A stretch of DNA of 64,000 nt from an uncultured Actinomycetes bacterium (GTDB taxonomy: Bacteria > Actinomycetota > Acidimicrobiia > Spongiisociales > DATADW01): positions 32,909 to 96,908 of the forward strand of contig CAWACT010000007.1 of assembly GCA_963780745.1 (NCBI GenBank), read 5' to 3'. The notes under the pieces are model-generated. The model was not told the origin of the DNA. It did no database searches and saw only the letters and a list, made by a program, of their open reading frames with translations. Position 1 is the first letter of the stretch. Each line of letters opens with the position of its first letter. Below are positions 3,401-50,694 of this stretch, in pieces. Both the position numbers and the translations under genes were made by a program.

Positions 3401-4141
3401 CTATCGGCGACTCTCGTTGGTCAATGCGGTGGCCGCTTGACCGGCCAGCAGTACCGCGATGACCTGCTGGTCGAAGTCCACCGTGCCGCCGGGCCGCGGC
3501 TCGAGGACGAAGCGTCCCAGCGACGTATCCTGGTACCGGACCGGCAGGTCGAGACCTCCAGGGGGGAGCTCGAAACCGGTGCGGCGGGCCACCAGGACAC
3601 CGGACGAGCCGAGCAGGCCGTCGGTGCCGAGGACGGCACGGGATCCATCAGGCTCACCGGGCTCGAAGCGGGCATCGCGCAACTCGAGCTCGGCGACCAG
3701 GGCGGCCCGGACCGCCTCGACGACCTCTTGGGCATTCGCCCCGGCCAGCACCAGCTTGGACACGTCGTTGAGCCGCTGGAGCTCGGCGTGGTGGGCCCGC
3801 CCCTTGCGCCGCTCCCCCTCGAAGAACTGCGCCAGCTCACCCACGACCAGTCCGATGACCACCAACAGCAGGGTCGTGATGAGGTCTTCGCGCGAGTCGA
3901 TGTCGAGGCTCAGGTAGGGCTGGGTGTGGAAGAAGTTGAAGGAGAGCCCGGCCACCACAGCGGTCACAACACCGGCGACGCGTCCCCCGGCAGCCGCGGC
4001 AGCAACGACGACCGCCAACAGGATCAGCGCCACGTTGGTGTTGCCCATCCAGTCGCGTAGCGGTCCAAGCGCCATCGCAATGAGTAGGACCGCGATCCCA
4101 CCCCCGGCGGCCGCCAGCCAGTCGACACGATCCTGTCTCAT
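3401..4141 (-). CDS. DUF4118 (KdpD-type membrane sensor domain) plus GAF-like domain protein; start overlaps kdpE stop (ATGA)
   Basis: MRQDRVDW...ALILLAVVVAAAAAGGRVAGVVTAVVAGLSFNFFHTQPYLSLDIDSREDLITTLLLVVIGLVVGEL is a DUF4118 signature. A GAF-like C-terminal half follows. The longer ORF to 4372 is an upstream extension into kdpE. Confidence 0.55.
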   Translation of the reverse strand: MRQDRVDWLAAAGGGIAVLLIAMALGPLRDWMGNTNVALILLAVVVAAAAAGGRVAGVVTAVVAGLSFNFFHTQPYLSLDIDSREDLITTLLLVVIGLVVGELAQFFEGERRKGRAHHAELQRLNDVSKLVLAGANAQEVVEAVRAALVAELELRDARFEPGEPDGSRAVLGTDGLLGSSGVLVARRTGFELPPGGLDLPVRYQDTSLGRFVLEPRPGGTVDFDQQVIAVLLAGQAATALTNESRR

Positions 4142-4836
4142 CTCTGCCTCACCTTCCCCGCGTCCGGTTCGAAGCGGTAGCCCATGCCCGGTTCGGTCAC
4201 GAAGTACCGCGGCCGACTGGGGTCGGGCTCGAGCTTGCGCCTGATCTGGGCCATGTAGACCCGGAGGTAGTTGGTCTCCTCCCCGTAGCTGGGACCCCAG
4301 ACATCGTGGAGCAGCTGACGTTGGGTCACCAGCCGCCCGGGGTGGCGGGCGAGCAACTCGACAATGCCCCATTCGGTCGGCGTCAAGCGGACTTCCTCGC
4401 CGTCCCGCTGAACCCTTTTAGCGGCCAGATCTATGACGAAGTCGGCGGTTGTCACCGAGGCCGGCTCGTCGGAGGGCGTGGCTCGTCGCAGCGCCGCCCG
4501 CAATCGAGCGAGCAACTCGCCCATCCCGAACGGCTTGGTCACATAGTCGTCGGCGCCGGCGTCGAGAGCGGCGATCTTGTCCCACTCCCTGTCGCGCACC
4601 GAGAGGACGACGATGGGGACGCTGGTCCACCCGCGCAACCCGCGGATCACCTCTACGCCGTCGATACCGGGTAGCCCCAGGTCGAGGATGACCGCATCGG
4701 GGCGGTGGTTGGCCGCCTCGATCAGCGCCTCCTCGCCGGTAGCGGCAGAGGCGACCTGGTAGCCAATCGCCTTGAGGTTCGTCAGCAGGGCCCGGACGAT
4801 CTGCGGCTCGTCGTCGACGACCAAGACCCTGGTCAC
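4138..4836 (-). CDS. kdpE: OmpR-family response regulator KdpE (GTG start)
   Basis: VLVVDDEPQIVRAL...DAVILDLGLPGIDG receiver domain plus a winged-helix output (LTPTEWGIVELL...YLRVYMAQIRRKLE). It sits immediately downstream of kdpD. Confidence 0.9.
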   Translation of the reverse strand: MTRVLVVDDEPQIVRALLTNLKAIGYQVASAATGEEALIEAANHRPDAVILDLGLPGIDGVEVIRGLRGWTSVPIVVLSVRDREWDKIAALDAGADDYVTKPFGMGELLARLRAALRRATPSDEPASVTTADFVIDLAAKRVQRDGEEVRLTPTEWGIVELLARHPGRLVTQRQLLHDVWGPSYGEETNYLRVYMAQIRRKLEPDPSRPRYFVTEPGMGYRFEPDAGKVRQR

Positions 4837-4856
4837 GGGCGCCCCGCCTCGCTTTC

Positions 4857-4884
4857 TAGTAGTAAGTACTGAGTACTAAGTACT
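4857..4884. repeat. tandem array of four heptamers (TAGTAGT AAGTACT GAGTACT AAGTACT) in the kdpD-kdpE intergenic spacer; AT-rich in a 70% GC context
   Basis: Read directly. It contains three AGTACT hexamers with 7-bp periodicity. Confidence 0.5.
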
Positions 4885-4888
4885 TCCT

Positions 4889-7390
4889 TCACAGCGCCGC
4901 CTTGATCCCGACCACCATGGTGGTGCCGCCTCCGGGGGTGTCCTCGACTATCAGTTCGTGCCCCATTGCCTCGACAAGCCCCTGGGCGACGGCTAGGCCG
5001 AGGCCGACGCCGGCACCATCGGGGCTGTCGCCCAGCCGCTGGAACGGTTGGAACACCCTGTCCCGATCCGATTCCGGGATGCCCGGACCCCGGTCGGAGA
5101 TCCTGAGGTCCACCCGGCCCGCCACCTCGCCCCCCGTGACCCGAACCGGCTCTCCTTCGGGCGACCAGGAGACGGCGTTCTCCACCAAATTGGCAACGAC
5201 CCGCTCCAAGAGCGCCGGGTCGGTCTGCACGCTCGGCAGCGACTCGGGCACGTCGATCACGAGCCGGGACGCCACCTCGGGCCGCCCGGCGATCGCCGAG
5301 GTGACCACCTCGTCGAGACCGACCACCTGGAAGAACACATGGACCGCCCCGGTCTGGATGCGCGAGGCGTCGAGCAGCTTGCCCACCATGTTGTTGAGCC
5401 GCTCGGTCTCCGAGAGGATCGCCTCGAGGAAGTCGTCCACTTCCTCCTCTGACCAGTCGACGTTGGTCTCCAACAGGCTGGTCACCGACGCCTTGATACC
5501 CGCCAGCGGGGTGCGCAGATCGTGAGAGACCGCGGTGAGCAGCGCCGTCCGCAGCCGGTCGGTCTCTGCCATCGACTGCGCTGCCGCCGCCTCGACCTGG
5601 AGCTTCCGTGTCTCGAGCACCGCTGCGAGCTGGGCGGTGAAAACGTGGAGCACGTGCCAGTCGTCGGCGCCCAGCCTCGACCCGAGCAGGGCTAGCCGGG
5701 TCCCCGACGCCAGCTCGAGGACCTCGCTGGCCAGCTCCGGTGTCGCCGGCACCGGCTCACCTGCGCTCGCCACCACCTCCCACCCCGTGTCGGTTGGGCG
5801 GAGCACGGCCGCCGCCTCCAACTCGAATGTCGCCCTGATCTGGTGGACGAGGTCTTCGAGCGCGTCGCGGTCGAGAGTGATCGAGCCGGCGAGCGTGGCC
5901 AATGCCTCCGCTTCGCGGCGTGCCCTGCTCGCCTCGGCGGCTCGGCGTGACGCCAGCCCGACTAGTCCACCCACGGCGCCGGCCACGATGAGGAAGACGA
6001 TCAGGGTGAAGAGGTTGGCTGGCTCGGCAATGGTGAAGGTCCCGGTCGGCTCGGTGAAGAACCAGTTCGCCAGGAGGAAGGCGATCACCGAGGCGACCAG
6101 CGCCGGGAGGATGCCGCCCACGGCGGCCACCGCCACCGTGACCAGGAGCAACACGAGCAGCTCGGTGTCGAGCCCGGTCTGCTCACTGAACGGGAGCAGC
6201 GCGGCCGTCGCCAAGACGGGGATGATGACCGCCAGCGCCCATCCGGCGATGCGACGGCGGCGAGGAAGACGCGACCTGGGCAGGTTGGGGGTGGCCAGCC
6301 TCCTGCCGGGCAAACCGGGGTGCGAGATGACATGGACATCGATGGGCCCCGAGCGCCTCACCACTTCCAGGATGGGCGAACCGCGCAACAGCTCCTCCCA
6401 CCGGGTCCGGCGCGAAGCCCCCATCACGAGTTGGGTCGCGTTCTCCGCCCGGGCGAATCGGACCAGCGCCTCGCCTACGTCATCCCCCACCACCTCGTGG
6501 TAGGTGCCCCCCAGATCAGTGAGAAGACGACGCTGGCTGGCCAGCTCATCGGCGGCCTGACTCCCCACGGCGAGCCCGTCCTGGGCGCGCACATGTACCC
6601 CGAGCAGTTCGGAGCGGGCCCGCATCGCCATCCGCGCCGCCCGGCGAACCACGTGGTCGCCCCCGACGAGCCCGGCTATGGCGACCACCACCCGTTCCTT
6701 CGTCTCCCATGAGGCGTCGATCCCGTGGGTCTCGCGATATCGCTCCAGCGCCTCGTCCACCCGGTCGGCGGTCCACGACAGCGCAAGCTCGCGCAGCGCC
6801 CCCAGGTTTCCCGGACGGAAAAAGTTGGCGAGGGCGGCGTCGATCCGCTCCGCCGGATAGATCTTCCCGGCCGCCATCCGCTCCCTGATCCCCTCCTGGG
6901 TCAGGTCAACCATCTCGATCTCGTCGGCGCGCCGCACCACTTCGTCAGGGATGGTCTCCCGCTGCACCACACCGGTGATCGCGGTCACCACGTCGTTCAT
7001 CGACTCCAGGTGCTGGATGTTGAGAGTGGTGATCACGTCGATGCCGGCGGCCAATAGCACCTCGACGTCCTCCCACCGCTTGTCGTGGCCCGAGCCGGGC
7101 ACGTTGGTGTGGGCCAGCTCGTCGATCAGGGCGATGTCCGGTTTGCGGCGCAGCACCGCATCGAGGTCCATCTCCTCGAAGGTGTTGCCGCGATAGGTCA
7201 CGGTACGGCGCGGGATCACCTCGAGACCGTCGATGAGCGCTGCCGTGTCGGGTCTCCCGTGCGTCTCGACCAACCCGACCGCCACGTCCAGGCCCTCGAC
7301 GGCGAGCCGGTGCCCCTCCTCGAGCATGGCGTAGGTCTTGCCCACCCCGGGAGCGGCCCCCAGGAACACCCGGAGCTTGCCGCGGGGCAT
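4889..7390 (-). CDS. kdpD: sensor histidine kinase KdpD (KdpD-N P-loop, Usp, DUF4118 TM, GAF, HisKA, HATPase); intact
   Basis: GAAPGVGKTYAML N-terminus, followed by a membrane block, then SHDLRTPLAGI H-box and an HATPase_c tail (DRGPGIP...GLGLAVAQGLVEAMGH). Confidence 0.92.
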   Translation of the reverse strand: MPRGKLRVFLGAAPGVGKTYAMLEEGHRLAVEGLDVAVGLVETHGRPDTAALIDGLEVIPRRTVTYRGNTFEEMDLDAVLRRKPDIALIDELAHTNVPGSGHDKRWEDVEVLLAAGIDVITTLNIQHLESMNDVVTAITGVVQRETIPDEVVRRADEIEMVDLTQEGIRERMAAGKIYPAERIDAALANFFRPGNLGALRELALSWTADRVDEALERYRETHGIDASWETKERVVVAIAGLVGGDHVVRRAARMAMRARSELLGVHVRAQDGLAVGSQAADELASQRRLLTDLGGTYHEVVGDDVGEALVRFARAENATQLVMGASRRTRWEELLRGSPILEVVRRSGPIDVHVISHPGLPGRRLATPNLPRSRLPRRRRIAGWALAVIIPVLATAALLPFSEQTGLDTELLVLLLVTVAVAAVGGILPALVASVIAFLLANWFFTEPTGTFTIAEPANLFTLIVFLIVAGAVGGLVGLASRRAAEASRARREAEALATLAGSITLDRDALEDLVHQIRATFELEAAAVLRPTDTGWEVVASAGEPVPATPELASEVLELASGTRLALLGSRLGADDWHVLHVFTAQLAAVLETRKLQVEAAAAQSMAETDRLRTALLTAVSHDLRTPLAGIKASVTSLLETNVDWSEEEVDDFLEAILSETERLNNMVGKLLDASRIQTGAVHVFFQVVGLDEVVTSAIAGRPEVASRLVIDVPESLPSVQTDPALLERVVANLVENAVSWSPEGEPVRVTGGEVAGRVDLRISDRGPGIPESDRDRVFQPFQRLGDSPDGAGVGLGLAVAQGLVEAMGHELIVEDTPGGGTTMVVGIKAAL

Positions 7391-7392
7391 CA

Positions 7393-7420
7393 GACGGAAG
7401 ACGGAAGACGGAAGACGGAA
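7393..7420. repeat. (GACGGAA)x4 tandem heptamer array filling the kdpC-kdpD intergenic region, ending 2 nt before the kdpD start codon; no Shine-Dalgarno
   Basis: Four perfect copies read directly. On the coding strand the leader is (UUCCGUC)x4. Confidence 0.55.
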
Positions 7421-7424
7421 GGCA

Positions 7425-8009
7425 TCACGGAGAAGTCTCGCGCTGCTCGAGCGACAGGTTGAGCATCAACACGTTCACAGCTGGCTCGTTGAGGAAGCCG
7501 AGCATGGGCGAAACGGTGCTTTCGTCGATGAGGGCCATCACCTCGTCCACCGAGATCCCCCGCTCCTCGGCTACCCGAGTGGCTTGGAGGCGGGCGTTCG
7601 CCACCGATATGTGGGGGTCGAGACCGGAACCCGAGGCGGTGACTGCATCAACGGGAACGGACTCGTCTGGGTCCAGGCCGTTGAGCTGGCGGTAGGCGGC
7701 GATCCGCTCCTCCACCGATGCAAGTAGGTCTTGATTCAGCGGGCCCAGGTTCGATCCGCTGGAGATGGTGGGGTCGTAGCCGTCACCAGCCGCCGAGGGA
7801 CGGGGGTGGAAGAACTCGGGGGCGGTGAAACCCTGGCCGATCAGCTCCGACCCCACCGCTTGTCCGTCCCGCTCCAGAAGCGATCCGCCGGCATGGTCGC
7901 CAAAGAGCAGCTGGCCGGCACCGGTAACGGCGAGGGTGTAGGCGAAGCCGGTCACCACAGTCATGACGAGGAGCATCAGGATCGAAGGAAGCAGTTGGCG
8001 CCGCATCAC
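7425..8009 (-). CDS. kdpC: K+-transporting ATPase subunit KdpC
   Basis: N-terminal TM helix, then motifs [38 protein letters not shown], typical of KdpC. Confidence 0.9.
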
Positions 8010-10040
8010 ACCAGTCCAATCGCAGTTATGACCACATCAATGAGCTTGATCCCCACGAACGGGATCAGGAGCCCGCCCACGCCATAGACGAGCACGTTGC
8101 GCCGCAAGATCGCCGGGGCACCTGCCGCCCGGAAACGGACCCCGCGCAGGGCCAGCGGAATCAGGGCGACGATGATCAGGGCGTTGAAGATGACCGCCGA
8201 GAGGATCGCCGACTCGGGCGACTCGAGCTGCATGATGTTGATCCGGTCGAGCACGGGGAACACCGCGGCGAACATCGCCGGGATGATGGCGAAGTACTTG
8301 GCCACGTCGTTGGCTATGGAGAAGGTGGTCAGCGACCCACGGGTGATGAGAAGCTGCTTTCCGATCTCGACGATCTCGAGCAGCTTGGTCGGGTTGGAGT
8401 CGAGATCCACCATGTTCCCCGCCTCCTTGGCCGCCTGGGTGCCGGTGTTCATGGCAACCCCCACGTCGGCCTGAGCCAAGGCCGGTGCGTCGTTGGTGCC
8501 GTCACCGGTCATCGCCACCAGCCGGCCCCCAACCTGCTCGCGCCGGATCAGGTCCATCTTGTCCTCGGGCTTGGCTTCGGCCAGGAAGTCATCCACTCCC
8601 GCCTCGTTGGCGATGGCGGCAGCCGTCAGCGGGTTGTCACCGGTGATCATCACCGTGCGGATGCCCATCCTCCGCAGCTCGTCGAAACGCTCCCGGATGC
8701 CCTGTTTGACGATGTCCCTGAGCACGACGATGCCGAGCACCCGGGCACCGTCGGCGACCACCAGCGGGGTGGCGCCCTGCGAGGCGACGTCCGACACGGC
8801 GGTGCTCACCTCCGGCGAGAAGAAACCGCCCGTTGGACTCGACCCAGGCGCCAACCGAGTCGGCGGCGCCCTTGCGGATGCTGCGGCCGTCGGTGTCGAC
8901 CCCGCTCATCCGAGTCTGGGCGGTGAATGGGATGAGGGTCGATCCGCGCAACTCCCGGCCCCGGAGCCCGAACGCGCTCCTTGGCGAGCACGACGATGGA
9001 GCGGCCCTCGGGTGTCTCGTCGGCCAAGCTCGCCAACTGCGCCGCCTCGGCCAACTCGGCCTCGGTGACGCCGGGCGCCGGGATCAACTCCCGGGCCTGG
9101 CGGTCTCCGAGGGTGATGGTGCCGGTCTTGTCGAGCAGCAGCGTGGAGCAGTCACCCGCCGCCTCCACCGCCCGGCCGCTCATCGCCAGCACGTTGGCCT
9201 GGACCAGACGGTCCATCCCGGCGATACCTATGGCGGAGAGCAGGGCGCCGATCGTGGTCGGGATGAGGCAGACCAGCAGCGCCACCAGCACCACGATCTC
9301 CTGCTCGCCACCCGAATAGATGGCGAACGGCTGCAGGCGTCACCACCGCCAGCAGGAAGATGATGGTGAGCCCGGCGAGCAGGATGTTGAGGGCGATCTC
9401 GTTTGGCGTCTTCTGCCGCTCGGCACCCTCCACCAGGGCGATCATCCGGTCGAGGAAGGTCTGGCCGGGCCGGGCAGTGATCCGCACCACCAGCTCGTCG
9501 GAGAGCACCCGGGTGCCACCGGTCACCGCAGAGCGGTCGCCGCCCGATTCACGGATCACCGGTGCCGACTCACCGGTGATGGCCGACTCGTCAACCGAGG
9601 CAACCCCTTCGATCACTTCCCCGTCGCTGGGGATGACCTCTCCGGCCGAGACCACCACGATGTCGTCGAGATCGAGCGCCGTGGCCGCCACCACCTCGAT
9701 GGACCCGTCGGGGTTGCGGCGGTTGGCCGTGGTCTGGGTCCGCGTCCGTCGCAGCGAGTCGGCCTGGGCCTTCCCCCGTCCCTCTGCCATCGCCTCGGCG
9801 AAGTTGGCGAAGAGGACGGTGAACCAGAGCCAGAGCACCACCTGGCCGGCGAACGAGTTCTCGGCGCCGGTCGGCCGAGCCGAGGTCGCGCAACCAGATG
9901 ATGGTGGTGAGCACCGCCCCGACCTCGACGACCAGCATCACCGGGTTGCGCACCATGTGGCGCGGGTCGAGTTTGCGGAAGGCGTCTCCCGCGGCTCGGC
10001 GCATGATCGCCGGGTCGAAACGTCGTACGGCGCGTGCCAT
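8006..10040 (-). pseudogene. kdpB: K+-transporting P-type ATPase subunit KdpB, interrupted by about 4 frameshifts (near 9855, 9320, 8965, 8840)
   Basis: Five ORF fragments in different frames match E. coli KdpB colinearly: [21 protein letters not shown]; [43 protein letters not shown]; [41 protein letters not shown]; [14 protein letters not shown]; [43 protein letters not shown]. Confidence 0.85.
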
Positions 10041-11765
10041 ATCTCCGTTCTCCTAAAGGCTGAGGTGCTCGACGATGGGCCCGAGAGCCCAAACGGGGAA
10101 GAAGGTCAGGCCGGCCACCACCAGGATCACCCCGATGAGAAGCCCGGCGAAGAGGGTCCGGTCGGTGGGGAAGGTCCCTGCCGAAGCGGGAACGGTCTGC
10201 TTGCGCGACCAGCGAGCCGGCGATGCCGAGCACCGGGATGATCAGGAAGAACCGCCCCACCAGCATGGCGATGCCCAGCGTCGGGTGAGTAGAAGCTGTT
10301 GGTGGCGGTCAGCCCGGCGAAGGCGCTGCCGTTGTTGTTCCCCGCCGAGGTGAAGGCGTAGAGGATCTCGGAGAGCCCGTGAGGGCCGGTGTTGAGCTGT
10401 CCCTCGAGACCGGCGGGGAGCAGAGCGCCCGGCGGCGCTGAATCCGAGCACCACCAGGGGCATGGCCAGGATGTAGAGCACCACGAGCTTGACCTCGGCG
10501 GCCTGGATCTTCTTGCCCAGGTACTCGGGGGTCCTCCCCACCATCAGACCGGCGATGAAGACGGTGAGGAAGACGAAGACCAGCATCCCGGTGAGCCCGA
10601 CGCCGAGGCCGCCAGGCGAGATCTCGCCCAGCTTCATGTTGATCATCGGGATCAGCCCGCCGATCGGGGTGTTCGAGTCGTGCATCGAGTTGACCGACCC
10701 GTTGGAGGTGGCGGTGGTGGATGCAGCCCACACCGCCGACAGGGCCGGGCCGAAGCGGACCTCCTTGCCCTCCATGTTCCCGCCCGGCGCCTCGCTCACT
10801 GTCGCCTGGTCGGCGCCGAGGGCGCTGAGGTTGGGGTTGCCGGCGTCCTCCGCCCAGACATTGATGGCGATCGAGCCGAGCAGGAGCAACCCCATCACCG
10901 CGATCAGAGCGAAGCCCTGGCGGCGGTTGCCGACCATCCGCCCGTACATGTCGACGCTGGCGAAGGCGATGGAGAAGAGGGCCCAGGTCGAGAGGAAGTT
11001 GGTCAGCCCGTTGGGGTTCTCGAATGGGTGAGCCGAGTTGACGTTGAAGAAGCCGCCGCCGTTGCTACCCAGTTGCTTGATGGCGATCTGACTGGCGACC
11101 GGCCCGCCCGGGACCGACTGGGTCGCCCCTTCCAGCGTGGTGACCTCGGTGAACCCGTCGAAGTTCTGGATGACTCCTTGGCTGACGAGGACGAGGGCGA
11201 AGACGAAAGCCAGCGGGAGGAGGATGCGGGTGACCGAGCGGGTCATGTCCACCCAGAAGTTGCCGATGGTGTTCGCCCGCCGCCGTGCGATACCCCTGAC
11301 CAGTGCGACCAGTGCAGCCAGGCCCACCGCCGGCGACACGAAGTTCTGCACGACGAGACCGGCGAATTGGGAGAGATGGCTCATCGTCGCCTCACCCGCG
11401 TAGCTCTGCCAGTTGGTGTTGGTCATGAAGCTGACCGCGGTGCTGAAGGCCACCCCCGGCTCGACAGCCGGCATGTCGGTTGGGTTGAGCGGGAGGACCG
11501 CCTGCAGCCGGAGTAGGGCATAGAGGAAGAGCACCGAAACCACGCTGAAGGCCAGCAGCGCCATGGCGTAGCCGGTCCAGCGCTGCTCGACGGTGGGGTC
11601 GATCCCGCAGATCCGGTAGAAGAACCGCTCGATCGGAAGGAAGAAGCGGTCGCCCGGAGCCTTCCCCTCGCCGTAGATACCGGCCATGTAGCGGCCCAGG
11701 ACCACGGTGGTCAACGCGGTGAAGACGACGAGGGCCACGATGAAGACCCAGCCCGGGATGTCCAT
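10041..11765 (-). pseudogene. kdpA: K+-transporting ATPase subunit KdpA, C-terminal region disrupted by about 3 frameshifts (near 10425, 10285, 10195); 3' boundary approximate
   Basis: The main ORF matches KdpA to ...[16 protein letters not shown]. The continuation [34 protein letters not shown] and then [22 protein letters not shown] appear in two other frames. Confidence 0.85.
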
Positions 11766-11854
11766 CAGAACCGTTCGGGGTCGAGCAGGGCGATCACCAG
11801 GTAGATGATCAGCCCGACGGCGACCACCAGCCCGACGATGTTGTCGGCGATCAT
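11765..11854 (-). CDS. kdpF: KdpF (29 aa) small hydrophobic subunit; stop overlaps kdpA ATG
   Basis: Translates to [29 protein letters not shown]. This is a typical KdpF sequence at the typical position. Confidence 0.6.
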
Positions 11855-11881
11855 GGGGCCATCACCTCGGCGTCGGTTGGA

Positions 11882-16357: not shown

Positions 16358-18064
16358 TTGCCAGAACTGCCCGGTCGAGGAGCCAGTGTGACCGAGCAGC
16401 AGACCCGATCCGCCCCTCCGGGGCGAACCCCGCGCCACCGCTCCGAGAGCCAGGCACGCCGCCAGGCGAGGCTGCTCACGGTGGTGCTTCTCGTTGTGGC
16501 AGCCGCCGTTGCTGTCTGGCTCCTCCTCGACGTTTTCTCGGGTGACGTTGGCGGCACCGCATCCCCCAGCTCGTTCCCGGCCTCGGCCGGGGAGTCGACG
16601 GTGGCGACCACCACGACCTCCGCTCCCCAGCCGGTGGCGGTCCCTGCGGAGAGCATCGGCGCCCCGTGGGGGACCACCCAGGGAGTCACCATGTTCCGGG
16701 GCAACCCCACCAGGTCGTGGTTCGGTCGGGGAGCACTCGCTGCCACACCCCAGGTGCGGTGGAGCTACCCCGAAGGGGAGATGTGCTCGGTCTCGGTCGA
16801 TCTGGGCGAGGAGTCTGAATGGTGCGGGACCGGATGGACCGGACAACCTCTCGTCTGGACCAACCTCGAGGGGACGACCGAGGTCCTGTTCGGCGGCTAC
16901 GACGGTGCGGTCCATTTCGTCGATGCCGCGACCGGGGAGCCGACCAGGGAGCCCTTCCCGACCGGCGACCTCATCAAGGGATTCGGTGCGATCGACCCCG
17001 ACGGCTACCCCTTGCTCTACTTCGGCTCCCGAGACAACAAGTTCCGCATCGTCGCCCTCGACCGGGAGCCGGTGAGCCAGGTCTGGTCGATGGACGCCTT
17101 CGACGTGGACGGTCTGTGGAATGACGATTGGGATTCGAGCCCGGCAATCGTCGATGGGATCCTCTACGTGGGTGGGGAGAACGGCTGGTTTTACGCCATC
17201 GAGCTCAACCGCACCTATGGCGAGCAGGGCCGGGTGCGGGTCCGACCCGAGGTTCTGTTCTCGGCCCCCACCTATGACGACGAGTTCCTCGACATGCTGA
17301 ACGAGGGCAAGCCGAGACCGCCCGCCGCCGAGCTGCCTCGCGACGGCAGCGGGTCCGACCTCGACTACGACGTCGAGATCAGCGTGGAGAACAGCCCGGT
17401 GTTCTTCCGCAACCGGGTGTATGTCGCCAACTCGGCGGGTCGGATCCTCGGTTTCGACATCAGCGACATCCGCGAGGGACGGGCTCGGGTGGTGTTCGAC
17501 TACTGGGCTGGCGGCGACATCGACGGGACCATGGCGGTGGACCCAAAGGGCCGGCTCATCGTGCCCATCGAGTTCGAGCCCAACGACAAGGCGGGGAAGC
17601 CGCCGATGTCGGAGGCCGAGGCCGCCCATCAGCGGGAGGTCGGGCAACTGGTGAAGCTCGACCCATATGCCGACGGCGATCCCCGGCTCTGGGGCGTGGA
17701 CCTCACCGCCGGCGGCGAGAACGCCGGGATCTGGGCCAGCCCGGTCCTCTACGAAGGGCTTGTGTACGTCCCGACCCACACCGGGGAACTGCTCGCCGTC
17801 AGCGCCGCCAACGGTGAGGTGGTGTGGCGCGATTCGGTCGGTCCCAAGACATGGTCGTCACCGGTGATCGTCGGCGATCAGCTCATCCAGGCCACTTTCG
17901 CCTCCGGCATCCGTGGCTACTCCCTGGCCGACCCCCGACATCCCGAGCGGCTGTGGACGGTTGAGCTGCCAGAGAGCGGGGAAGTCGAGTCCACACCCGT
18001 CGTCTGGGAAGGGACGCTCTACGTCGGCTCGCGCAACGGCTTCTTCTACGCCGTAGGCCGGTAG
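16358..18064 (+). CDS. membrane-anchored PQQ-like beta-propeller repeat protein (TTG start)
   Basis: N-terminal TM, then repeated GxxYVGxxxGxxYAxD-type blades (ILYVGGENGWFYAIE, LVYVPTHTGELLAVSAANGEVVW, TLYVGSRNGFFYAV). Confidence 0.6.
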   Translation: MPELPGRGASVTEQQTRSAPPGRTPRHRSESQARRQARLLTVVLLVVAAAVAVWLLLDVFSGDVGGTASPSSFPASAGESTVATTTTSAPQPVAVPAESIGAPWGTTQGVTMFRGNPTRSWFGRGALAATPQVRWSYPEGEMCSVSVDLGEESEWCGTGWTGQPLVWTNLEGTTEVLFGGYDGAVHFVDAATGEPTREPFPTGDLIKGFGAIDPDGYPLLYFGSRDNKFRIVALDREPVSQVWSMDAFDVDGLWNDDWDSSPAIVDGILYVGGENGWFYAIELNRTYGEQGRVRVRPEVLFSAPTYDDEFLDMLNEGKPRPPAAELPRDGSGSDLDYDVEISVENSPVFFRNRVYVANSAGRILGFDISDIREGRARVVFDYWAGGDIDGTMAVDPKGRLIVPIEFEPNDKAGKPPMSEAEAAHQREVGQLVKLDPYADGDPRLWGVDLTAGGENAGIWASPVLYEGLVYVPTHTGELLAVSAANGEVVWRDSVGPKTWSSPVIVGDQLIQATFASGIRGYSLADPRHPERLWTVELPESGEVESTPVVWEGTLYVGSRNGFFYAVGR

Positions 18065-18245
18065 ACGGCAGACGGAATCAAGCCTCCCCCGGTCAGGAGG
18101 AGGAGGTGCGGATCGGCTCCCCCTCCCGGTGAGGGGAGGGGGTTGGGGGGAGGGTGATTGCCGCCGCTCGGCCCAGTCACCCCCTCCGCTCGCTTGGCTC
18201 GCGCCTCCCCCTCACCGGGGGAGGCAAGAAGGTGCTCCCTCCGCA
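18065..18245. repeat. GC-rich REP-like extragenic element, copy 1, between convergent genes; contains hairpins cccctcccggtgagggagggg and cctccccctcaccgggggagg
   Basis: It shares an ~110-bp core in permuted order with 38027-38201. It starts with GACGGCAGACGGAA heptamers. Confidence 0.55.
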
Positions 18246-21600: not shown

Positions 21601-22308
21601 CGGGGGACTGAGCACTTGGTCGATGACGTGGATCACGCCGTTGCCGGCGGTGATGTCGGTCTCGACGACGATGGCGTCACCGACCATGACCGTCTCGCCC
21701 TCGACGGTGACCGGTAGGTCGGACCCCTGGGCGGTTGCGAGCGAGCTCTCGGTGACCAGATCGGCCGCTGGGTACTCGCCCGGGACCACGTGGTAGAGCA
21801 GGAAGGGCTCGAGCTGCGTCGGGTCGGCTAGCAACTCCTCCAATGTCCCCGTGGGGAGCTCGGCAAACGCATCGTCGGTTGGGGCGAAGAGGGTGTAGGG
21901 ACCTGCCCCTGCCAACTCCTCGGTCAGTCCGGCGGCTTCGATGGCGCTGAGCAACGTGGCGAACCGCCCGTCTCCTGCCGCAACATCCACGATGGTCTCC
22001 CCGCCGTCGGCGCCGGTGTCGGCGGTGGCAGAACCGGTGTCATCGGTCCTGGGCTCGGTGACGTCGGTGGAGGTGTCGTCGGTCCGCGGCTCGGTGTCGT
22101 CGGTCGTCGTGTCGTCGGTACGCGGCTCGGTGTCGTCCGTACTCGGTTGAGTATTAGCAACGCCGACGGTTGTCTCGACGCCTGGCACGGTCGTGTCGGT
22201 GGCGGTCCCTCCGTCGCAGGCGGCCAGCACCACCGCCAAGACGAGCGCAAACCAGATGGGGACGCGCCATCCCACGATGCGCTCCTTTCCTCGATGGCCA
22301 GCTGTCAT
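21583..22308 (-). CDS. fasciclin (FAS1) domain lipoprotein with TDDTEPR low-complexity repeats
   Basis: Lipobox LAAC, repeated TDDT(E/T)PRTDDT, and a FAS1 core (FTLFAPTDDAFAELP...GNGVIHVIDQVL). Confidence 0.75.
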   Translation of the reverse strand: MTAGHRGKERIVGWRVPIWFALVLAVVLAACDGGTATDTTVPGVETTVGVANTQPSTDDTEPRTDDTTTDDTEPRTDDTSTDVTEPRTDDTGSATADTGADGGETIVDVAAGDGRFATLLSAIEAAGLTEELAGAGPYTLFAPTDDAFAELPTGTLEELLADPTQLEPFLLYHVVPGEYPAADLVTESSLATAQGSDLPVTVEGETVMVGDAIVVETDITAGNGVIHVIDQVLSPPEQLGG

Positions 22309-28970: not shown

Positions 28971-29048
28971 TGGTGGGCCTGGCAGGATTTGAACCTGCAA
29001 CCGACGGATTATGAGTCCGCTGCTCTGACCGAATTGAGCTACAGGCCC
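28971..29048 (-). tRNA. tRNA with CAU anticodon (elongator Met or Ile-lysidine type), CCA encoded
   Basis: Cloverleaf folded by hand: acceptor GGGCCTG/CAGGCCC, D-arm GCTC/GAGC, anticodon loop CTCATAA, T-arm GCAGG-TTCAAAT-CCTGC. G1-C72 is paired, so it is not an initiator. Confidence 0.85.
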
Positions 29049-31733: not shown

Positions 31734-31806
31734 TCCGGGGTAGCTCAATTGGCAGAGCAGTGGACTGTTAATCCATGTGTTGAGAGTTCGAGTCTCTCCC
31801 CCGGAG
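31734..31806 (+). tRNA. tRNA-Asn (GUU)
   Basis: Acceptor TCCGGGG/CCCCGGA, D-arm GCTC-AATTGGCA-GAGC, anticodon loop CTGTTAA, T-arm GAGAG-TTCGAGT-CTCTC, discriminator G. Confidence 0.9.
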
Positions 31807-35829: not shown

Positions 35830-36564
35830 GTGGACTCGAGCTCGACCGGCCCAGCGATTGGGGAGACACCGCCGTACCGCCCCCATCTGGGCGAATCCCG
35901 CCAGTACTGGCGCGACATCATCCTGGGGGTCAATGACGGGCTCGTCTCCATCTTCCTGCTGGTTGCCGGGGTGGTGGGCGGTGGGCTCTCCACCAGCGAC
36001 GTCCTGTTGACCGCCATCGCCGGTGCGGTGGCCGGTGCCATCAGCATGGCGGCCGGCGAGTACCTCGCCACCAAGAGCCAGGACGAGGTGTTCCAACGCG
36101 AGATGGCGCTCGAGGAGGAGCACTTCACCTATCACCGGGAACGCGAGGTCGAGGAACTCGAAGAGATCCTCGCCGACCTCGGCCTCCACGGCGAGGTACT
36201 GGAGGCGGCCACTGCTCAACTCGCGGCGAGCGACGAGTCGATGCTCAAGGTGATGATGGCGCTGGAGTTCGGGGCGTTGGAGAAGGAGCGCCGCTCACCG
36301 TGGAAGGCGATGATCGCCTCGGGAGCACTCTTCCTCGTAGGAGCCTTGCCTTCTGTGGTCCCGTTCATCTTCGTGACCGACGCGCGGATCGGGCTCATCT
36401 GGGCGGCGATCCTCGCCGGGATCGGACTCTTCGCTGTGGGGTTCGTGAAGTCGGTGGTGACGCGCAGCCATCCTTTGCGCGCCGGCCTGGAGAACTTCGG
36501 CGTCGCCGCTGGTGGCGCCGGGGTCAGTTACCTCATCGGGAGTCTGTACGGGCGGGTGGCGTAA
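35830..36564 (+). CDS. VIT1/CCC1 family iron/manganese transporter
   Basis: WRDIILGVNDGLVSIFLLVAGVVGG...AGAISMAAGEYLATKSQ signature, a coiled linker, and a second TM bundle. Confidence 0.75.
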   Translation: MDSSSTGPAIGETPPYRPHLGESRQYWRDIILGVNDGLVSIFLLVAGVVGGGLSTSDVLLTAIAGAVAGAISMAAGEYLATKSQDEVFQREMALEEEHFTYHREREVEELEEILADLGLHGEVLEAATAQLAASDESMLKVMMALEFGALEKERRSPWKAMIASGALFLVGALPSVVPFIFVTDARIGLIWAAILAGIGLFAVGFVKSVVTRSHPLRAGLENFGVAAGGAGVSYLIGSLYGRVA

Positions 36565-36568
36565 GAAA

Positions 36569-36678
36569 GGTTATGGGTTATGGGTTTTGAGTGATGGGTA
36601 AGCGTCGACCCCCGGCCCGCCGGGCTTGTCACGCCGCTCGACTCACGTTCCAGAACCCACAACCCAGAACCCAAAACC
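36569..36678. repeat. inverted pair of four-heptamer arrays, (GGTTATG GGTTATG GGTTTTG AGTGATG) at 36569-36596 and (CAGAACC CACAACC CAGAACC CAAAACC) at 36651-36678, flanking a GC hairpin; the second array ends 5 nt before the amidase ATG
   Basis: Read directly. Both strands carry four GGG tracts (a G-quadruplex-like, telomere-like TTATGGG pattern). Confidence 0.5.
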
Positions 36679-36683
36679 TATAT

Positions 36684-38024
36684 ATGGAGCTTTACCAACT
36701 CGGGATAAGTGAACTCGGTGCCGGATATCGCAACCGAGAGTTCTCGCCCAGCGAAGTGGTCGAAGCGCTGCTGGCGAGGATCGAGGCCGTAGGAAGCGAG
36801 ATCGACGCCTTCGCCATGGTCACCGCCGACACCGCTATCCGCCAAGCCACCGAGGCGGAGAGCGCTCTGGCTCACGGGGACGAACGCCCGCTGCTCGGGA
36901 TCCCAATAGCCATCAAGGATCTGGTGGACACGGCAGGGATCGCCACCGAGGCAGGCAGCGCCCTGTTCGCCGGGAGGGTCCCATTCGAGGATGCCCCGGT
37001 GTGGAGCGCGCTGCGTGAAGCGGGATGCGTGCTCATCGGCAAGACCCGCACCCACGAGTTCGCCCTGGGATCCTCGACCCCGCCTACCACCAACCCGTGG
37101 AACACCGCGCACATCCCCGGTGGGTCCTCCGGGGGGAGCGCCGCCGCTCTCGCCGCCGGTTTTACCCCGGCGGCCATCGGGACCGACACCGCCGGGTCGA
37201 TCAGAATCCCCTCGGGTCTCTGCGGGACGGTCGGGTTGAAGCCGACCGCAACACTCGTCCCGGCCACCGGCGTCGTGCCCCTTTCTTGGAGTCTCGACAA
37301 CGTCGGCCCAATGGCGCGCTCCCCTCGCGACTGCGCCCTGCTGCTCGATGCGATCACACCCGGAGCACCCGGGACGACGCTTCCATGGAGCACCGACATC
37401 GAGGGTTGGCGAGTAGGTGTGCTGTCCAACCCGGGTCCGCTGTCTGCCGGCGTTGCCGAGGCGGTGACCACATCCGCCCGGCACCTCGCCGAAGCGGGGG
37501 CCGTGCTCGACGAGATCGAGATCACCGACTTCGAGGGCTGCGTCGACCTGGACTTCGACATCATCGCCGCCGAGGTGGCGCTCTACCACCGGCCCTGGTA
37601 CGAACAGAGGCTTGCCGAATACACCGGCGAGGTGGGACCGCGTGTCGGCAGCGGCTTCTCCATCGGCGCCGCCGAATACCTCGAGCACCGACGTCGCGCC
37701 GAGGGCTTCCGCACTGCCTTCCTCGCTGCACTCGATGGCCGCGACTTGATCCTCCTCCCCGGAATGCCCGCACCCGCACCGCGGATCGGCGATGAGGTGC
37801 TGTGGATGGGCGAGGAATCCGATCAGTACGACCATGCGCTGTGCCGCAACACGTCCTTCGCCAACCTCACCGGGTTGCCAGCTCTGGCGATCCCCGCCGG
37901 GCTCGAGGCCGGCCTCCCCGTCGGGGTCCAATTGGCCGCCGGACACTTCGAGGACCACCGGCTCCTTGCCGCCGGCCAGGTCCTGTGGGAGATGCTCCAT
38001 CCTCCCCGATTGGCGCCGATGTAG
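36684..38024 (+). CDS. amidase-signature family amidase (GatA-like)
   Basis: GGSSGGSAAALAAG...GTDTAGSIRIPS amidase signature; Ser-cisSer-Lys triad context. Confidence 0.8.
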   Translation: MELYQLGISELGAGYRNREFSPSEVVEALLARIEAVGSEIDAFAMVTADTAIRQATEAESALAHGDERPLLGIPIAIKDLVDTAGIATEAGSALFAGRVPFEDAPVWSALREAGCVLIGKTRTHEFALGSSTPPTTNPWNTAHIPGGSSGGSAAALAAGFTPAAIGTDTAGSIRIPSGLCGTVGLKPTATLVPATGVVPLSWSLDNVGPMARSPRDCALLLDAITPGAPGTTLPWSTDIEGWRVGVLSNPGPLSAGVAEAVTTSARHLAEAGAVLDEIEITDFEGCVDLDFDIIAAEVALYHRPWYEQRLAEYTGEVGPRVGSGFSIGAAEYLEHRRRAEGFRTAFLAALDGRDLILLPGMPAPAPRIGDEVLWMGEESDQYDHALCRNTSFANLTGLPALAIPAGLEAGLPVGVQLAAGHFEDHRLLAAGQVLWEMLHPPRLAPM

Positions 38025-38026
38025 AT

Positions 38027-38201
38027 AGAGAGGCGGAAGAGGAGTCCGACTCCGTCCCCCCGCAGGGGGGAAGGGACCCGCCCTGAATCACCCCCTCCGC
38101 TCGCTCCGCTCGCGCCTCCCCCTCACCGGGGGAGGCAGAGGATCGGCCCCCCTCCCGGTGAGGGAGGGGGCTGGGGGGAGGGTGATTGGCACTCGCCCCA
38201 G
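38027..38201. repeat. GC-rich REP-like extragenic element, copy 2 (same family as 18065-18245), filling the gap between convergent genes
   Basis: Shared blocks: tcaccccctccgctcgct..ctcgcgcctccccctcaccgggggaggca and gatcggc.cccctcccggtgagggagggggctggggggagggtgatt. Confidence 0.55.
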
Positions 38202-42372: not shown

Positions 42373-43551
42373 ATGGCCGACCTCGCCATCGTCAATGCCG
42401 CCACCGTGGTGAGCGGCGACGTCAACGCCCCGATCGCCGACGCCGACAGCATCCTGGTGCGGGATGGCCTGATAGCCGAGGTGGGTCGGGGTCTCGACCC
42501 CGGAGACATCGACAAGGTCATCGACTGCGGCGGGGCAACCGTCATGCCCGGGCTGATCGACTCGCACATCCATCCTGTCATAGGCGACTTCTCACCGCGG
42601 CAGCGGATCCTCGACTTCCTGGAGAGCTACGCCCACGGCGGGGTGACCACCATGATCTCCGCCGGCGAACCCCACACCCCGGGCCGGCCTACCGACCGGG
42701 CAGGGGTCAAGGCACTCGCCATCCTGGCGGCGCGATCGTTCCTATCGGTGCGCCCCGGCGGGGCCAAGGTGGTCGCCGGGGCCGTCTTGCTCGAAACCGG
42801 GCTCACCGAGGATGACTTTGCCGAGATGGCGGACGCCGGGGTGCGGCTCGTGGGGGAGATCGGGATCTCGGGGGTGAAGGATCCGGCGGAGGCTGAGCCC
42901 ATGGTTCGCTGGGCCCAGGCTCACGGCATGAAGGTCGTCGTCCACACCGGCGGGGCGTCGATCCCGGGTAGTGGGGTCATCGGCGCCGACTTCGTCCTCG
43001 CCGTCCGCCCGGACGTGGCTGCGCACGTCAATGGCGGACCGACGGCGCCTCCGCTGAGCGACGTCGCACGGATCATCGACGAGTCGGATGCGGCCATAGA
43101 GGTGGTCCACAACGGCAACGTCAAGGCATGCGGCGAGGTCGTCGCGCTCGCCGCACAGCGGGGGGCTCTCGACCGTGTCCTCGTTGGAACCGACTCGCCG
43201 GCGGGGACCGGTGTTGTGCCACTCGGCGTGCTGCGCACCGTCTCATGGGCGGCGGCCTTCGGCGGTGTGCCACCGGAGGTGGCGGTGTCTTTCGCCACCG
43301 GCAACACCGCCCGGGTCCACGGGCTGAACCGGGGCCTGATTGCTTCCGGGTCGGAAGCCGATCTCATCATCGCCGACGCCCCGCTCGGGTCGCAGGCCGG
43401 CGACGCCCTCGGCTCCTTGGCGATCGGCGATACCCCGGCCGTCTACGCATCGGTGACCGATGGCGTCGTCCGGTTCGTCAAGTCCCGCAACACCCCGCCC
43501 CCCGTCAGGACCATCTCGATCCCCTGGATGGCGACTGGGGGTGGGCATTGA
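42373..43551 (+). CDS. metal-dependent amidohydrolase (enamidase/Amidohydro_1-like)
   Basis: N-terminal beta-sandwich, then GLIDSHIHPV metal-binding start and a downstream HTGGAS..VHNG block. Confidence 0.7.
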   Translation: MADLAIVNAATVVSGDVNAPIADADSILVRDGLIAEVGRGLDPGDIDKVIDCGGATVMPGLIDSHIHPVIGDFSPRQRILDFLESYAHGGVTTMISAGEPHTPGRPTDRAGVKALAILAARSFLSVRPGGAKVVAGAVLLETGLTEDDFAEMADAGVRLVGEIGISGVKDPAEAEPMVRWAQAHGMKVVVHTGGASIPGSGVIGADFVLAVRPDVAAHVNGGPTAPPLSDVARIIDESDAAIEVVHNGNVKACGEVVALAAQRGALDRVLVGTDSPAGTGVVPLGVLRTVSWAAAFGGVPPEVAVSFATGNTARVHGLNRGLIASGSEADLIIADAPLGSQAGDALGSLAIGDTPAVYASVTDGVVRFVKSRNTPPPVRTISIPWMATGGGH

Positions 43552-49612: not shown

Positions 49613-50590
49613 TCAGGTCCCGGGCGGGCCCGTGGTCTCGCCGTCGATCAGTTCGAGCCGAAGCCGGTGGCGGGGGACTGCTTCTGAACCGGCGATCAGC
49701 GCCAAGAGGCTCTCGACCGCCCAGCGACCGCTCTCGGCCAACTGCTGGCCGATGGTGGTGAGACCGATGTGGCGCGCCAAATCGGAGCCGTCAATCCCTA
49801 TGACCGACAGGTCATCGGGGACGCGCATGCCGCGTCGGCGCGCCTCGGCGAGCACGGTGATGGCCCGCCAATCCGAACCGGCCACCACCGCCGAGGGAGG
49901 CCGGCCCGCATCGAGGATCCCTCCGACGGCCGCTTCGCTGTCGGTCCCGGAGAAGACGAGCGCCCCATCGGCCTCCAAGCCGGCGGCGGTCACGGCAGAG
50001 TTGAAGCCACGCAGCCGTCGGCGAGAGGTGGCAATGGATTCCGGCTCTCCCAAGTAGGCGATCCGGCGGTGGCCAAGGCCAATCAGATGCTCGGTGGCGA
50101 TACGGGTCCCATGGGCTTCGTCGGCCCATGCGGACGGCCAGCCCTCGACCCCCTGACCTACGAAGACACAGCGGGTGCCGGCACGCATCAGCACCGCGCT
50201 CTCGGAGGGTGAGGGACGAAGGTCGATAACCACCGCCCCCTCCGCTCTCCCCCGCTCGGCAATCCGGCGAAATCGGTCACGGCGCTGCTCCTCATCGGCC
50301 ACCTCGAGCAGGATCGGGTCTAGCCCCGTGAGCGAGAGCGCTTCGAGGACTCCGCGCAACCGGGTGGTGACCGCCGGGCTGGTCAGGATGGGGGCGACCA
50401 CGAACACCGAACTGCTCCGCCCGAGCGACAAGTTCCGAGCTAACAAGCTGGGCTGGTATCCGAGCTCCTCGATCGCGGTCTGGACCAATTGCCGTGTCGT
50501 CGCGCTGACCGCCGACGACTCGTTGAGTACCCGCGATACCGTCCCCACACCGACTCCGGCGTGTGCTGCAACATCGAGGATGGTGGCCAC
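49613..50590 (-). CDS. LacI-family transcriptional regulator (GTG start)
   Basis: VATILDVAAHAGVGVGTVSRVLN HTH plus a periplasmic-binding-like sugar-binding domain. Confidence 0.8.
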   Translation of the reverse strand: MATILDVAAHAGVGVGTVSRVLNESSAVSATTRQLVQTAIEELGYQPSLLARNLSLGRSSSVFVVAPILTSPAVTTRLRGVLEALSLTGLDPILLEVADEEQRRDRFRRIAERGRAEGAVVIDLRPSPSESAVLMRAGTRCVFVGQGVEGWPSAWADEAHGTRIATEHLIGLGHRRIAYLGEPESIATSRRRLRGFNSAVTAAGLEADGALVFSGTDSEAAVGGILDAGRPPSAVVAGSDWRAITVLAEARRRGMRVPDDLSVIGIDGSDLARHIGLTTIGQQLAESGRWAVESLLALIAGSEAVPRHRLRLELIDGETTGPPGT

Positions 50591-50666
50591 CGGCCCCCCA
50601 ATTGGTTGATGGAACCGCTTCCACGGTAGACAGGCCACGGTGCGGGTGTCAATGGATTCAGAGAGA

Positions 50667-50694
50667 AGACGGAAGACGGAAGACGGAAGTCGGA
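50667..50694. repeat. (GACGGAA)x3 + GTCGGAA tandem heptamer array in the lacI/hypothetical divergent intergenic region
   Basis: Read directly. Same unit as the kdpC-kdpD array. Confidence 0.5.

Follow-up and report, generated by a model that had tools for sequence, protein, structure and literature searches.

Why should several intergenic regions of one genome each consist largely of four tandem copies of a seven-nucleotide unit, while the unit itself differs from region to region? The question is raised by a 64,000-nucleotide stretch of DNA (the window) from an uncultured Actinomycetes bacterium of the class Acidimicrobiia (GenBank assembly GCA_963780745.1, contig CAWACT010000007.1, positions 32,909 to 96,908 of the forward strand). 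A first-pass annotation, made from the sequence alone, had described five such arrays between genes and against start codons. Our analysis places them in the known class of intergenic heptanucleotide long simple sequence repeats (LSSRs), here in an uncultured Acidimicrobiia lineage. For their origin and role we lean, with moderate confidence, towards slippage or exchange with a focal size of about four units, retention in intergenic DNA, and, for the two arrays between kdp genes, service as translated linkers that couple one gene to the next.

We located the arrays by direct reading; Tandem Repeats Finder (TRF) returned no others and put the copy number of the 7-nt unit at 3.9-4.6. Two lie between kdp genes of the minus strand. 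The array at 4857..4884 has the plus-strand letters TAGTAGT AAGTACT GAGTACT AAGTACT, and that at 7393..7420 is a perfect plus-strand (GACGGAA)4, or (TTCCGTC)4 in the sense direction. Two more, on the plus strand between VIT1 and an amidase gene, are a G-rich arm at 36569..36596 (GGTTATG GGTTATG GGTTTTG AGTGATG) and a C-rich arm at 36651..36678 (CCAGAAC CCACAAC CCAGAAC CCAAAAC). The fifth, at 50667..50694 on the minus strand, reads (GACGGAA)3 followed by GTCGGAA on the plus strand and TTCCGAC (TTCCGTC)3 in the sense direction. Every one of the five is intergenic, between Pfam-confirmed genes (KdpE, KdpD, KdpC, VIT1, amidase, LacI). A self-match scan of the window likewise found these five period-7 arrays and no more, against an average of 0.16 and never more than 2 in 100 dinucleotide-preserving shuffles; at periods of 8-12 it found no arrays. 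The positions given in the first-pass annotation, the above-chance frequency (within the window), the AT-richness of the arrays relative to the 67% GC genome, and the constant four-by-seven layout with differing units were all confirmed, the last also across relatives. Single heptamers were not enriched in the window outside the arrays; GACGGAA, for example, occurs as a singleton six times, with 11.5 occurrences expected in total. A supposed two-unit remnant at 18064-18077 is therefore at chance level; the homologous place in the relative L116 reads TAGACGGCAcccgacgtccttGAATCAAGCCTC.

For comparison, we gathered eleven related contigs from assemblies in the European Nucleotide Archive (ENA), NCBI and the Joint Genome Institute (JGI) (labels L116-L126 and L169-L171), reached through the members of a KdpD cluster and one further protein search. 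The cluster members and the other matches carry Acidimicrobiia source names, and kdpD differs by 2-15% in pairwise comparisons among the relatives. A metagenome scan anchored on the 5' coding sequence of kdpD returned seven unrelated loci and no close relatives. In 197 kb of DNA from this lineage, the copy numbers of intergenic period-7 arrays gather at 3.7-4.6; a few decayed arrays have 2.6-2.9, and none reaches five clean copies. The arrays of the relatives are intergenic as well. Certain unit families recur, GACGG[A/C]A at about eight sites and AGTACNN at four, and all four intergenic sites vary among the relatives, by a switch of unit, by 0, 2 or 4 copies, by replacement or by decay. Because the same or allelic arrays recur in independent NCBI, JGI and ENA assemblies, we regard them as genuine rather than as assembly artefacts. 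The arrays thus show the three traits of an LSSR in the sense of Mrázek 2007 (cited through other papers): gapless head-to-tail 7-nt units above chance, a strong non-coding bias and variation at orthologous sites. Beyond the first-pass annotation, three further features emerged: the polarity of the arrays, a hairpin formed by the inverted pair, and short open reading frames (ORFs) that bridge the kdp arrays.

At the junction between kdpC and kdpD the unit changes while the length stays near four units. The three genes kdpC (7425-8009), kdpD (4889-7390) and kdpE (4138-4836) are co-directional on the minus strand (4138..8009; Pfam). In the sense direction, the kdpC-kdpD gap reads TGA TGCC (TTCCGTC)4 TG ATG, with the pyrimidine-rich strand as the mRNA sense strand. 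The kdpD ATG (7390-7388, minus) follows the array after 2 nt and, as the annotation had stated, has no Shine-Dalgarno (SD) sequence. The perfect (TTCCGTC)4 is shared with L117, while L116 and L126 carry a perfect (TGCCGTC)4; imperfect or mixed four-unit arrays occupy the gap in L170, L171, L125 and L169, with gaps of 34-37 nt. In L124 the array has been replaced by the AGTACNN type, in two four-unit arrays. The copy number is thus about four in eight of the nine strains, despite divergence of up to 15%. The kdpD genes of the window and L116 differ by 4.7%, yet all four units differ at the same position, which requires concerted change or allele exchange; the flank of the window array resembles the L117 and L171 alleles, which makes recombination plausible.

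Some of these alleles deserve description in their own right. The two L124 arrays (2911-2995) form an inverted four-unit pair of GGTACTT and AAGTACC types, about 29 nt apart. At the same site, L169 (~3790-3830) has a run of CGTC tetramers (CCGTCCGTCCGTCCGTCCGTC) instead of heptamers, which is either a heptamer-to-tetramer conversion or a long-read error. Window positions 7508-11873, upstream of the kdpC 3' end and probably holding most of kdpA and kdpB, have no counterpart in L116, which is otherwise 94-96% identical; L116 retains the 3' part of kdpC, the array and both kdpD and kdpE, and so seems to have lost the transporter genes but not the sensor pair.

The whole kdpC-kdpD array lies inside an 11-codon mini-ORF (7390..7425, minus), whose ATG overlaps the kdpC stop codon (TGATG) and whose TGA overlaps the kdpD ATG (TGATG). 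Such a stop-start mini-ORF (TGATG ... T(G/A)ATG, 11-12 codons) is present in the window, L117, L116, L126 and L171; the L171 copy is 3 nt longer and keeps the frame. In L124, a 13-codon ORF runs through the AAGTACC array and ends 2 nt before the kdpD ATG. The mini-ORF is an in-frame fusion in L170 and out of frame in L125 and L169. The two ATGs are 35 nt (5 x 7) apart, and among small multiples of seven only 14, 35 and 56 fit the stop-start frame. Selection on the frame could thus hold the kdpC-kdpD array at four internal units, though at this site alone.

A similar arrangement is found one gene further on. The array at 4857..4884 lies between the kdpD stop (4891-4889) and the kdpE GTG (4836-4834) and has a 14-nt super-period. 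The sense strand of the gap reads TGA AGGA AGTACTT AGTACTC AGTACTT ACTACTA, then 20 nt that include an SD-like GAGGCGGGG, then GTG. Four units are present in the window, L116, L126, L125, L169 and L170, and two remain in L171. The array is missing from L117 and from L124, which has lost the AGTACTY array although its closest relatives carry one. The array accounts for the only indels of at least 4 nt in an 11.5-kb alignment of the window with L117, and the states of zero, two and four units are compatible with few events on the kdpD tree. Here, too, an ORF of 19 codons (4833..4892, minus) spans the gap together with the array. It opens with a GTG that shares bases with the kdpD stop (GTGA) and closes with a TGA that shares bases with the kdpE start (GTGA). 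This bridging ORF (NTGA ... GTGA) occurs in six strains over gaps of 19, 31, 52, 55 and 61 nt, every one of which is 1 mod 3; the exceptions are L171, L125 and L170. Where AGTACTT units adjoin, the junction spells TAG, in a frame that rotates from one junction to the next, and the bridging frame is hit only after unit 2. That unit has a final C in each of the seven strains with the array, which removes the sole TAG from the bridging frame.

The bridging ORFs at both junctions suggest SD-free translational coupling of the kdp genes, and stop/start overlaps of the coupling type (UGAUG, AUGA, GUGA) are present by sequence at both. Several observations weigh against reading the arrays as coupling linkers made by slippage. 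Slippage alone leaves both the recurring unit families at independent sites and the constant copy number unexplained. The case for coupling draws on nine strains that are related and not independent, and the frame is broken at both junctions in L170 and L125 and at one each in L169 and L171; all are long-read assemblies, in which 1-nt errors are plausible but unproven. At 67% GC open frames arise readily, and by chance three of four NTGA motifs supply a start codon. Finally, the lacI array and arrays that follow stop codons cannot be coupling linkers. An aldehyde dehydrogenase gene of the window (43128-45020) is split over two frames, where L118, L120 and L123 have a single gene of 440-499 aa, and the kdp genes of L116, L169 and L170 are fragmented in a similar way. 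These splits are likely long-read indel errors or pseudogenes, and they bear on any argument from 1-nt frame differences.

We then turn to the inverted pair, which lies between VIT1 (to 36564) and the amidase gene (36684-38024) on the plus strand (35830..38024; Pfam). The G-rich arm begins 4 nt past the VIT1 stop; the C-rich arm, its inverted counterpart, ends 5 nt before the amidase ATG (36684), which indeed lacks an SD as first described. The two arrays pair over a 54-nt GC-rich spacer into an intercistronic hairpin (36569..36678, plus) with a predicted RNA minimum free energy of -51.7 kcal/mol (z = -4.0; 0 of 200 shuffles fold as well). The spacer, or hairpin core, occurs once in the window, and a consensus promoter scan around the hairpin gave no match. 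The VIT1-amidase gap measures 119 nt in the window versus 29-38 nt in relatives, where it holds GACGGCA x2.6 or GACGGAA-like arrays (L118, L119, L123) and no hairpin pair. The sequence before the amidase start varies, from purine-rich GACGGCA in L118 to GACGGAA-like in L123 and CCANAAC in the window, all without an SD. The hairpin pair more likely acts on mRNA ends or stability. On the other side of the amidase gene, 3' of it, the window carries CTCCGCTCG twice (38094-38113); at this place L118 (5691-5735) and L119 have 13 + 21 extra nucleotides that hold G-run and C-run motifs (GGGTCGGGGGAGC … GAACCACCCCCT). The region may represent another, second type of small intergenic element that varies between strains.

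The last array lies in the divergent region between a lacI-family repressor gene (49613..50590, minus; Pfam) and a hypothetical gene, with its pyrimidine-rich strand towards lacI. Homology with the gene call in L118 makes the GTG at 50590 the most likely start of lacI. From this start the array is 77 nt away, so that it lies upstream of lacI, as the first-pass annotation stated, and is not set against the start codon. The array lies 15 nt upstream of a -35-like TTGACA (50652-50647); a consensus promoter scan around lacI gave no match, and the promoter-like reading TTGACA-N18-TACCGT was made by eye. At the corresponding site L118 and L120 carry a decayed period-7 array (GGACGGC GGACGGC AGAAGGC AGGCGGC), and L123 has no array. 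Between the promoter-like site (50623-50652, minus) and the lacI GTG there is also an operator-like near-palindrome, TGGAACCGCTTCCA (50610-50623), conserved in L118 and L120 and with one substitution in L123. The conservation of TGGAACCGCTTCCA suggests that lacI is autoregulated.

We also examined how such arrays are distributed and oriented outside this lineage. Among the matches listed, (GACGGAA)3 occurs in more than 115 loci of varied phyla and GC contents, often several per genome. The candidate idea that GACGGAA is a universally special heptamer was rejected, since viral contigs hold no fewer x3 arrays of the same-composition controls GGACAGA and GAGCAGA (15 each, versus 6 for GACGGAA). 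Heptamer arrays as a type thus occur widely, with a small set of preferred units in each lineage. Polarity was counted in the high-GC foreign loci against our own crude ORF calls (GC content at third codon positions, GC3, plus length), which are noisy. With these calls, it is the 3' end of the pyrimidine-rich strand that lies next to an ORF in 47 cases, and the 5' end in 23 (p = 0.006). As the pyrimidine-rich strand points towards the nearest ORF, an array in an mRNA leader is rich in pyrimidines and one that follows a stop codon is rich in purines. Inverted pairs in the fetched loci follow one order, a purine-rich arm, a spacer of 5-93 nt and a pyrimidine-rich arm, in 15 of 15 cases, with none reversed; the clearer ones are laid out as stop codon, purine arm, spacer, pyrimidine arm, start codon. 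The window pair, G-rich then C-rich, fits this order, and the L124 pair is also inverted. Their spacers are not conserved, even inside one genome. Single arrays, by contrast with the window pair, were no more stable than shuffled sequences in a folding test. In a set of mostly Gemmatimonadaceae contigs from metagenome-assembled genomes (MAGs) (L018, L021, L045, L078, L087, L093, L099 and L105, several of them JANJUF01), the arrays nearly always have exactly three units and are C-flanked (CC TTCCGTC TTCCGTC TTCCGTC C/T), several of them ending in front of a long ORF, 5-14 nt from its ATG. Lineages may thus differ in focal size, judged from these loci, for which the search pattern itself demanded three perfect units.

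What, then, could hold the arrays at four units, and do they act on the neighbouring genes? One possibility is that they are not neutral microsatellites but a selected modular intercistronic device, a 28-nt module with an arbitrary unit that would be kept uniform by concerted evolution, turn its pyrimidine strand towards the ORF and work either through a translated bridging mini-ORF, coupling adjacent cistrons with no need of an SD, or, as an inverted pair, through a purine-first hairpin between cistrons; we consider this conceivable, though unlikely. Rather improbable, in our judgement, is that the arrays are bound by a factor that recognises specific RNA or DNA sequences (ribosomal protein S1, a protein with a cold-shock domain or some other reader of repeats), and so serve as SD-independent translation enhancers or as the tag of a regulon. 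Two arrays do abut SD-less starts, start-adjacent arrays are preferentially pyrimidine-rich in mRNA, and the lineage is dominated by a small number of unit families. T-rich single strands are bound by cold-shock domains over about seven nucleotides, which is a lead only. S1, Csp or CsrA have also been proposed as binders of the TAACTGA repeats (MacGregor 2015, PMC4679880). A sequence reader would nevertheless have to accept TTCCGTC, TGCCGTC or AAGTACC at kdpC-kdpD, depending on the strain, and the differing sequences before the amidase start, as well as three unrelated unit families in 64 kb. There is no enrichment of single heptamers, one array precedes a promoter-like site instead of lying in a leader, and about half of 30 genes called in the relatives have no SD and no array either. 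These findings weaken the earlier suggestion of SD-independent, sequence-specific enhancers. Iterons, also put forward in the first-pass annotation, would keep their unit at orthologous sites; here the unit at one site changes between strains, which together with the lack of enriched single heptamers argues against them.

The clean presence or absence of a block of about 28 nt, with the same unit families at unrelated sites and the size fixed at four units, could alternatively point to mobile or enzyme-made modules: 28-nt cassettes, or REP/MITE-like palindromes with heptamer-array arms, inserted between genes by a dedicated enzyme or by polar templated synthesis. Same-unit inverted pairs that flank a spacer with strict outward polarity (36569-36678, L124 and the 15 pairs in other phyla) would suit such an origin, and the 14-nt super-period and the 0/2/4 states hint at doubling. 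However, filled and empty sites show no target-site duplication, the pair spacers are unconserved even in one genome, the hairpin core is single-copy in the window, no candidate enzyme is linked to the arrays, and the decayed and mixed arrays at fixed sites look like evolution in situ. We therefore hold this origin to be decidedly improbable. Far less credible still is phase variation, in which copy number would switch or tune the adjacent genes. Although kdpD-kdpE has 0, 2 or 4 copies and the kdpC-kdpD gaps of 34, 35, 36 and 37 nt shift the relation of mini-ORF and kdpD between coupled, fused and out of frame, these length differences of 1-3 nt contain no whole units and come from error-prone assemblies. 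Four copies persist in nearly all strains over 5-15% divergence, and the adjoining genes are housekeeping or metabolic, not surface genes. The slippage-prone contingency loci of the first-pass annotation, which would show frequent whole-unit differences that switch a gene, are accordingly disfavoured by the roughly four copies in eight of nine strains at kdpC-kdpD, the 0/2/4 states at kdpD-kdpE notwithstanding; phase variation was likewise rejected for the Xanthomonas repeats (Rehm et al. 2015, PMC4692102). We give as little credence to selection for non-B DNA or RNA structure, a G-quadruplex (G4) or i-motif, as the reason for four units. G4 and i-motif formation has been shown for GGGAATC x4, whose repeats also have a four-unit mode (Rehm et al. 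2015, PMC4692102), the GGTTNTG arm contains GGG tracts, and (GACGGAA)4 has four GG tracts. GG tracts with 5-nt loops would form weak two-tetrad structures at best, and the AGTACTY and AAGTACC arrays, which have no G tracts, also comprise four units, in seven strains; the four-unit mode is thus not due to G4 formation.

We therefore return to slippage or exchange with a focal size as the reading we favour. Arrays would arise, homogenise and vanish by replication slippage or unequal exchange within the array, together with allelic recombination. The process of gain and loss would have a focal size of about four units. The arrays persist only in intergenic DNA and in forms that fit the flanking genes. 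Between the kdp genes they most likely serve as passive, frame-open translated linkers that couple kdpC to kdpD and kdpD to kdpE without an SD, the unit sequence mattering only in so far as no stop may enter the bridging frame. For the lacI array and the hairpin, a small effect or a different one is probable, for example on the 3' end or stability of mRNA, or attenuation.

These points matter because heptanucleotide repeats have no accepted origin or function after 35 years. The present lineage offers a compact natural experiment, in which four intergenic sites can be followed through about ten strains with 2-15% divergence. Comparing them shows that length stays near four while the unit is replaced, that this preference is independent of G4 potential, and that orientation to genes is strict. 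If the coupling holds, the arrays should be counted within the translation unit when genes are called and operons modelled in high-GC, SD-poor phyla; if it does not, the data still constrain slippage models, notably in focal length and polarity. Should the arrays prove to be a modular device, focal size and strict polarity would be rules shared by many phyla, and they would point to a single polar generating or selecting mechanism for heptanucleotide repeats unexplained since 1990. Length homeostasis with unit replacement, purine-arm-first pairs (15/15), the kdp bridging ORFs and a four-unit preference in a unit that cannot form a G4 may be new. Such comparative details bring the old question of these repeats within reach of experiment.

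A few other features of the window were recorded. Rfam at the gathering threshold matched only two tRNA genes in the whole window, at 28974-29048 (minus) and 31734-31806 (plus). A G/C-rich palindromic element (…GGCTCCCCCTCCCGGTGAGGGGAGGGGGTTGGGGGG…) at 18078-18170 follows the stop codon of a pyrroloquinoline quinone (PQQ) beta-propeller gene; opposite it, L116 has about 1.3 kb of other sequence, and the alignment breaks between window positions 18070 and 18238. At 22036-22146, tandem repeats of 36 and 21 nt (GGTGTCGTCGGT…), in a stretch with a lower GC content (0.615), are probably coding repeats.

How do the arrays compare with known repeat systems? Repetitive extragenic palindromes (REPs) and the bacterial interspersed mosaic elements (BIMEs) built from them are imperfect palindromes of enterobacteria with conserved sequence, spread by the RAYT transposase. 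Like these, the element at 36569-36678 is an intercistronic hairpin between co-directional genes that is missing in close relatives. Unlike them, it has arms of tandem heptamers and a unique spacer, and single arrays are not palindromic. A core found once in the window, unrelated spacers, and filled and empty sites without a duplication set the pairs apart from both REP/BIME and miniature inverted-repeat transposable elements (MITEs); the unconserved spacers and the unique window spacer argue particularly against a MITE-like element. A literature search for the strings GACGGAA and TTCCGTC found no paper, and we found nothing published on the arrays of this lineage.

Within the heptanucleotide repeats proper, the likeness to the short tandemly repeated repetitive (STRR) sequences of cyanobacteria noted in the first-pass annotation stands at the level of the class, both being intergenic heptanucleotide tandem repeats (Mazel 1990, cited through other papers). 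Membership itself does not follow: the specific STRR units of filamentous cyanobacteria are absent from the window arrays, whose units (TTCCGTC, AGTACTY, GGTTNTG) and host (Acidimicrobiia) differ, and STRR arrays are often much longer. The TAACTGA repeats of marine Beggiatoaceae, cyanobacteria and Bacteroidetes, in 2-6 copies and patchy across phyla, mostly point at start codons and end a few nucleotides away from them, with no canonical ribosome-binding site (MacGregor 2015, PMC4679880). The heptamer direct repeats near the SD-less starts of kdpD (2 nt) and the amidase gene (5 nt) resemble them in this. The kdpD-kdpE array, 20 nt from a start with the SD-like GAGGCGGGG, the lacI array at 77 nt and the VIT1-proximal arm do not. 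Moreover, TAACTGA is one dominant unit whose copy number falls monotonically (2 > 3 > 4), whereas the window lineage peaks at four. TAACTGA also has stops in every frame and so cannot be a translated linker, while the kdp arrays are open in the bridging frame.

Heptanucleotides are the most over-represented long simple sequence repeats in many genomes, including those of Actinobacteria, with an intergenic bias, and polymerase slippage has been proposed as their origin (Mrázek 2007, cited through other papers). In this class the GGGAATC heptamers of Xanthomonas and the GGGGA(C/T)T heptamers of Nostoc are intergenic, with a mode of four units and inverted pairs; they vary in length and sequence at the same intergenic sites of close species and have no link to any class of gene function (Rehm et al. 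2015, PMC4692102). Our arrays differ from them in host, a high-GC actinobacterial MAG, in having several unrelated unit families within one 64-kb window, and in their units, which are not of the G3-tract type. No window array has at least four G3 tracts: GACGGAA offers GG only, AGTACTY, which cannot form a G4, a single G, and GGG occurs only in the GGTTNTG arm. An explanation of the four units by G4 formation can therefore not be carried over from those repeats to these. Both sets are intergenic tandem heptamers with a four-unit mode and inverted pairs, and the polarity rule is the same as in Xanthomonas.

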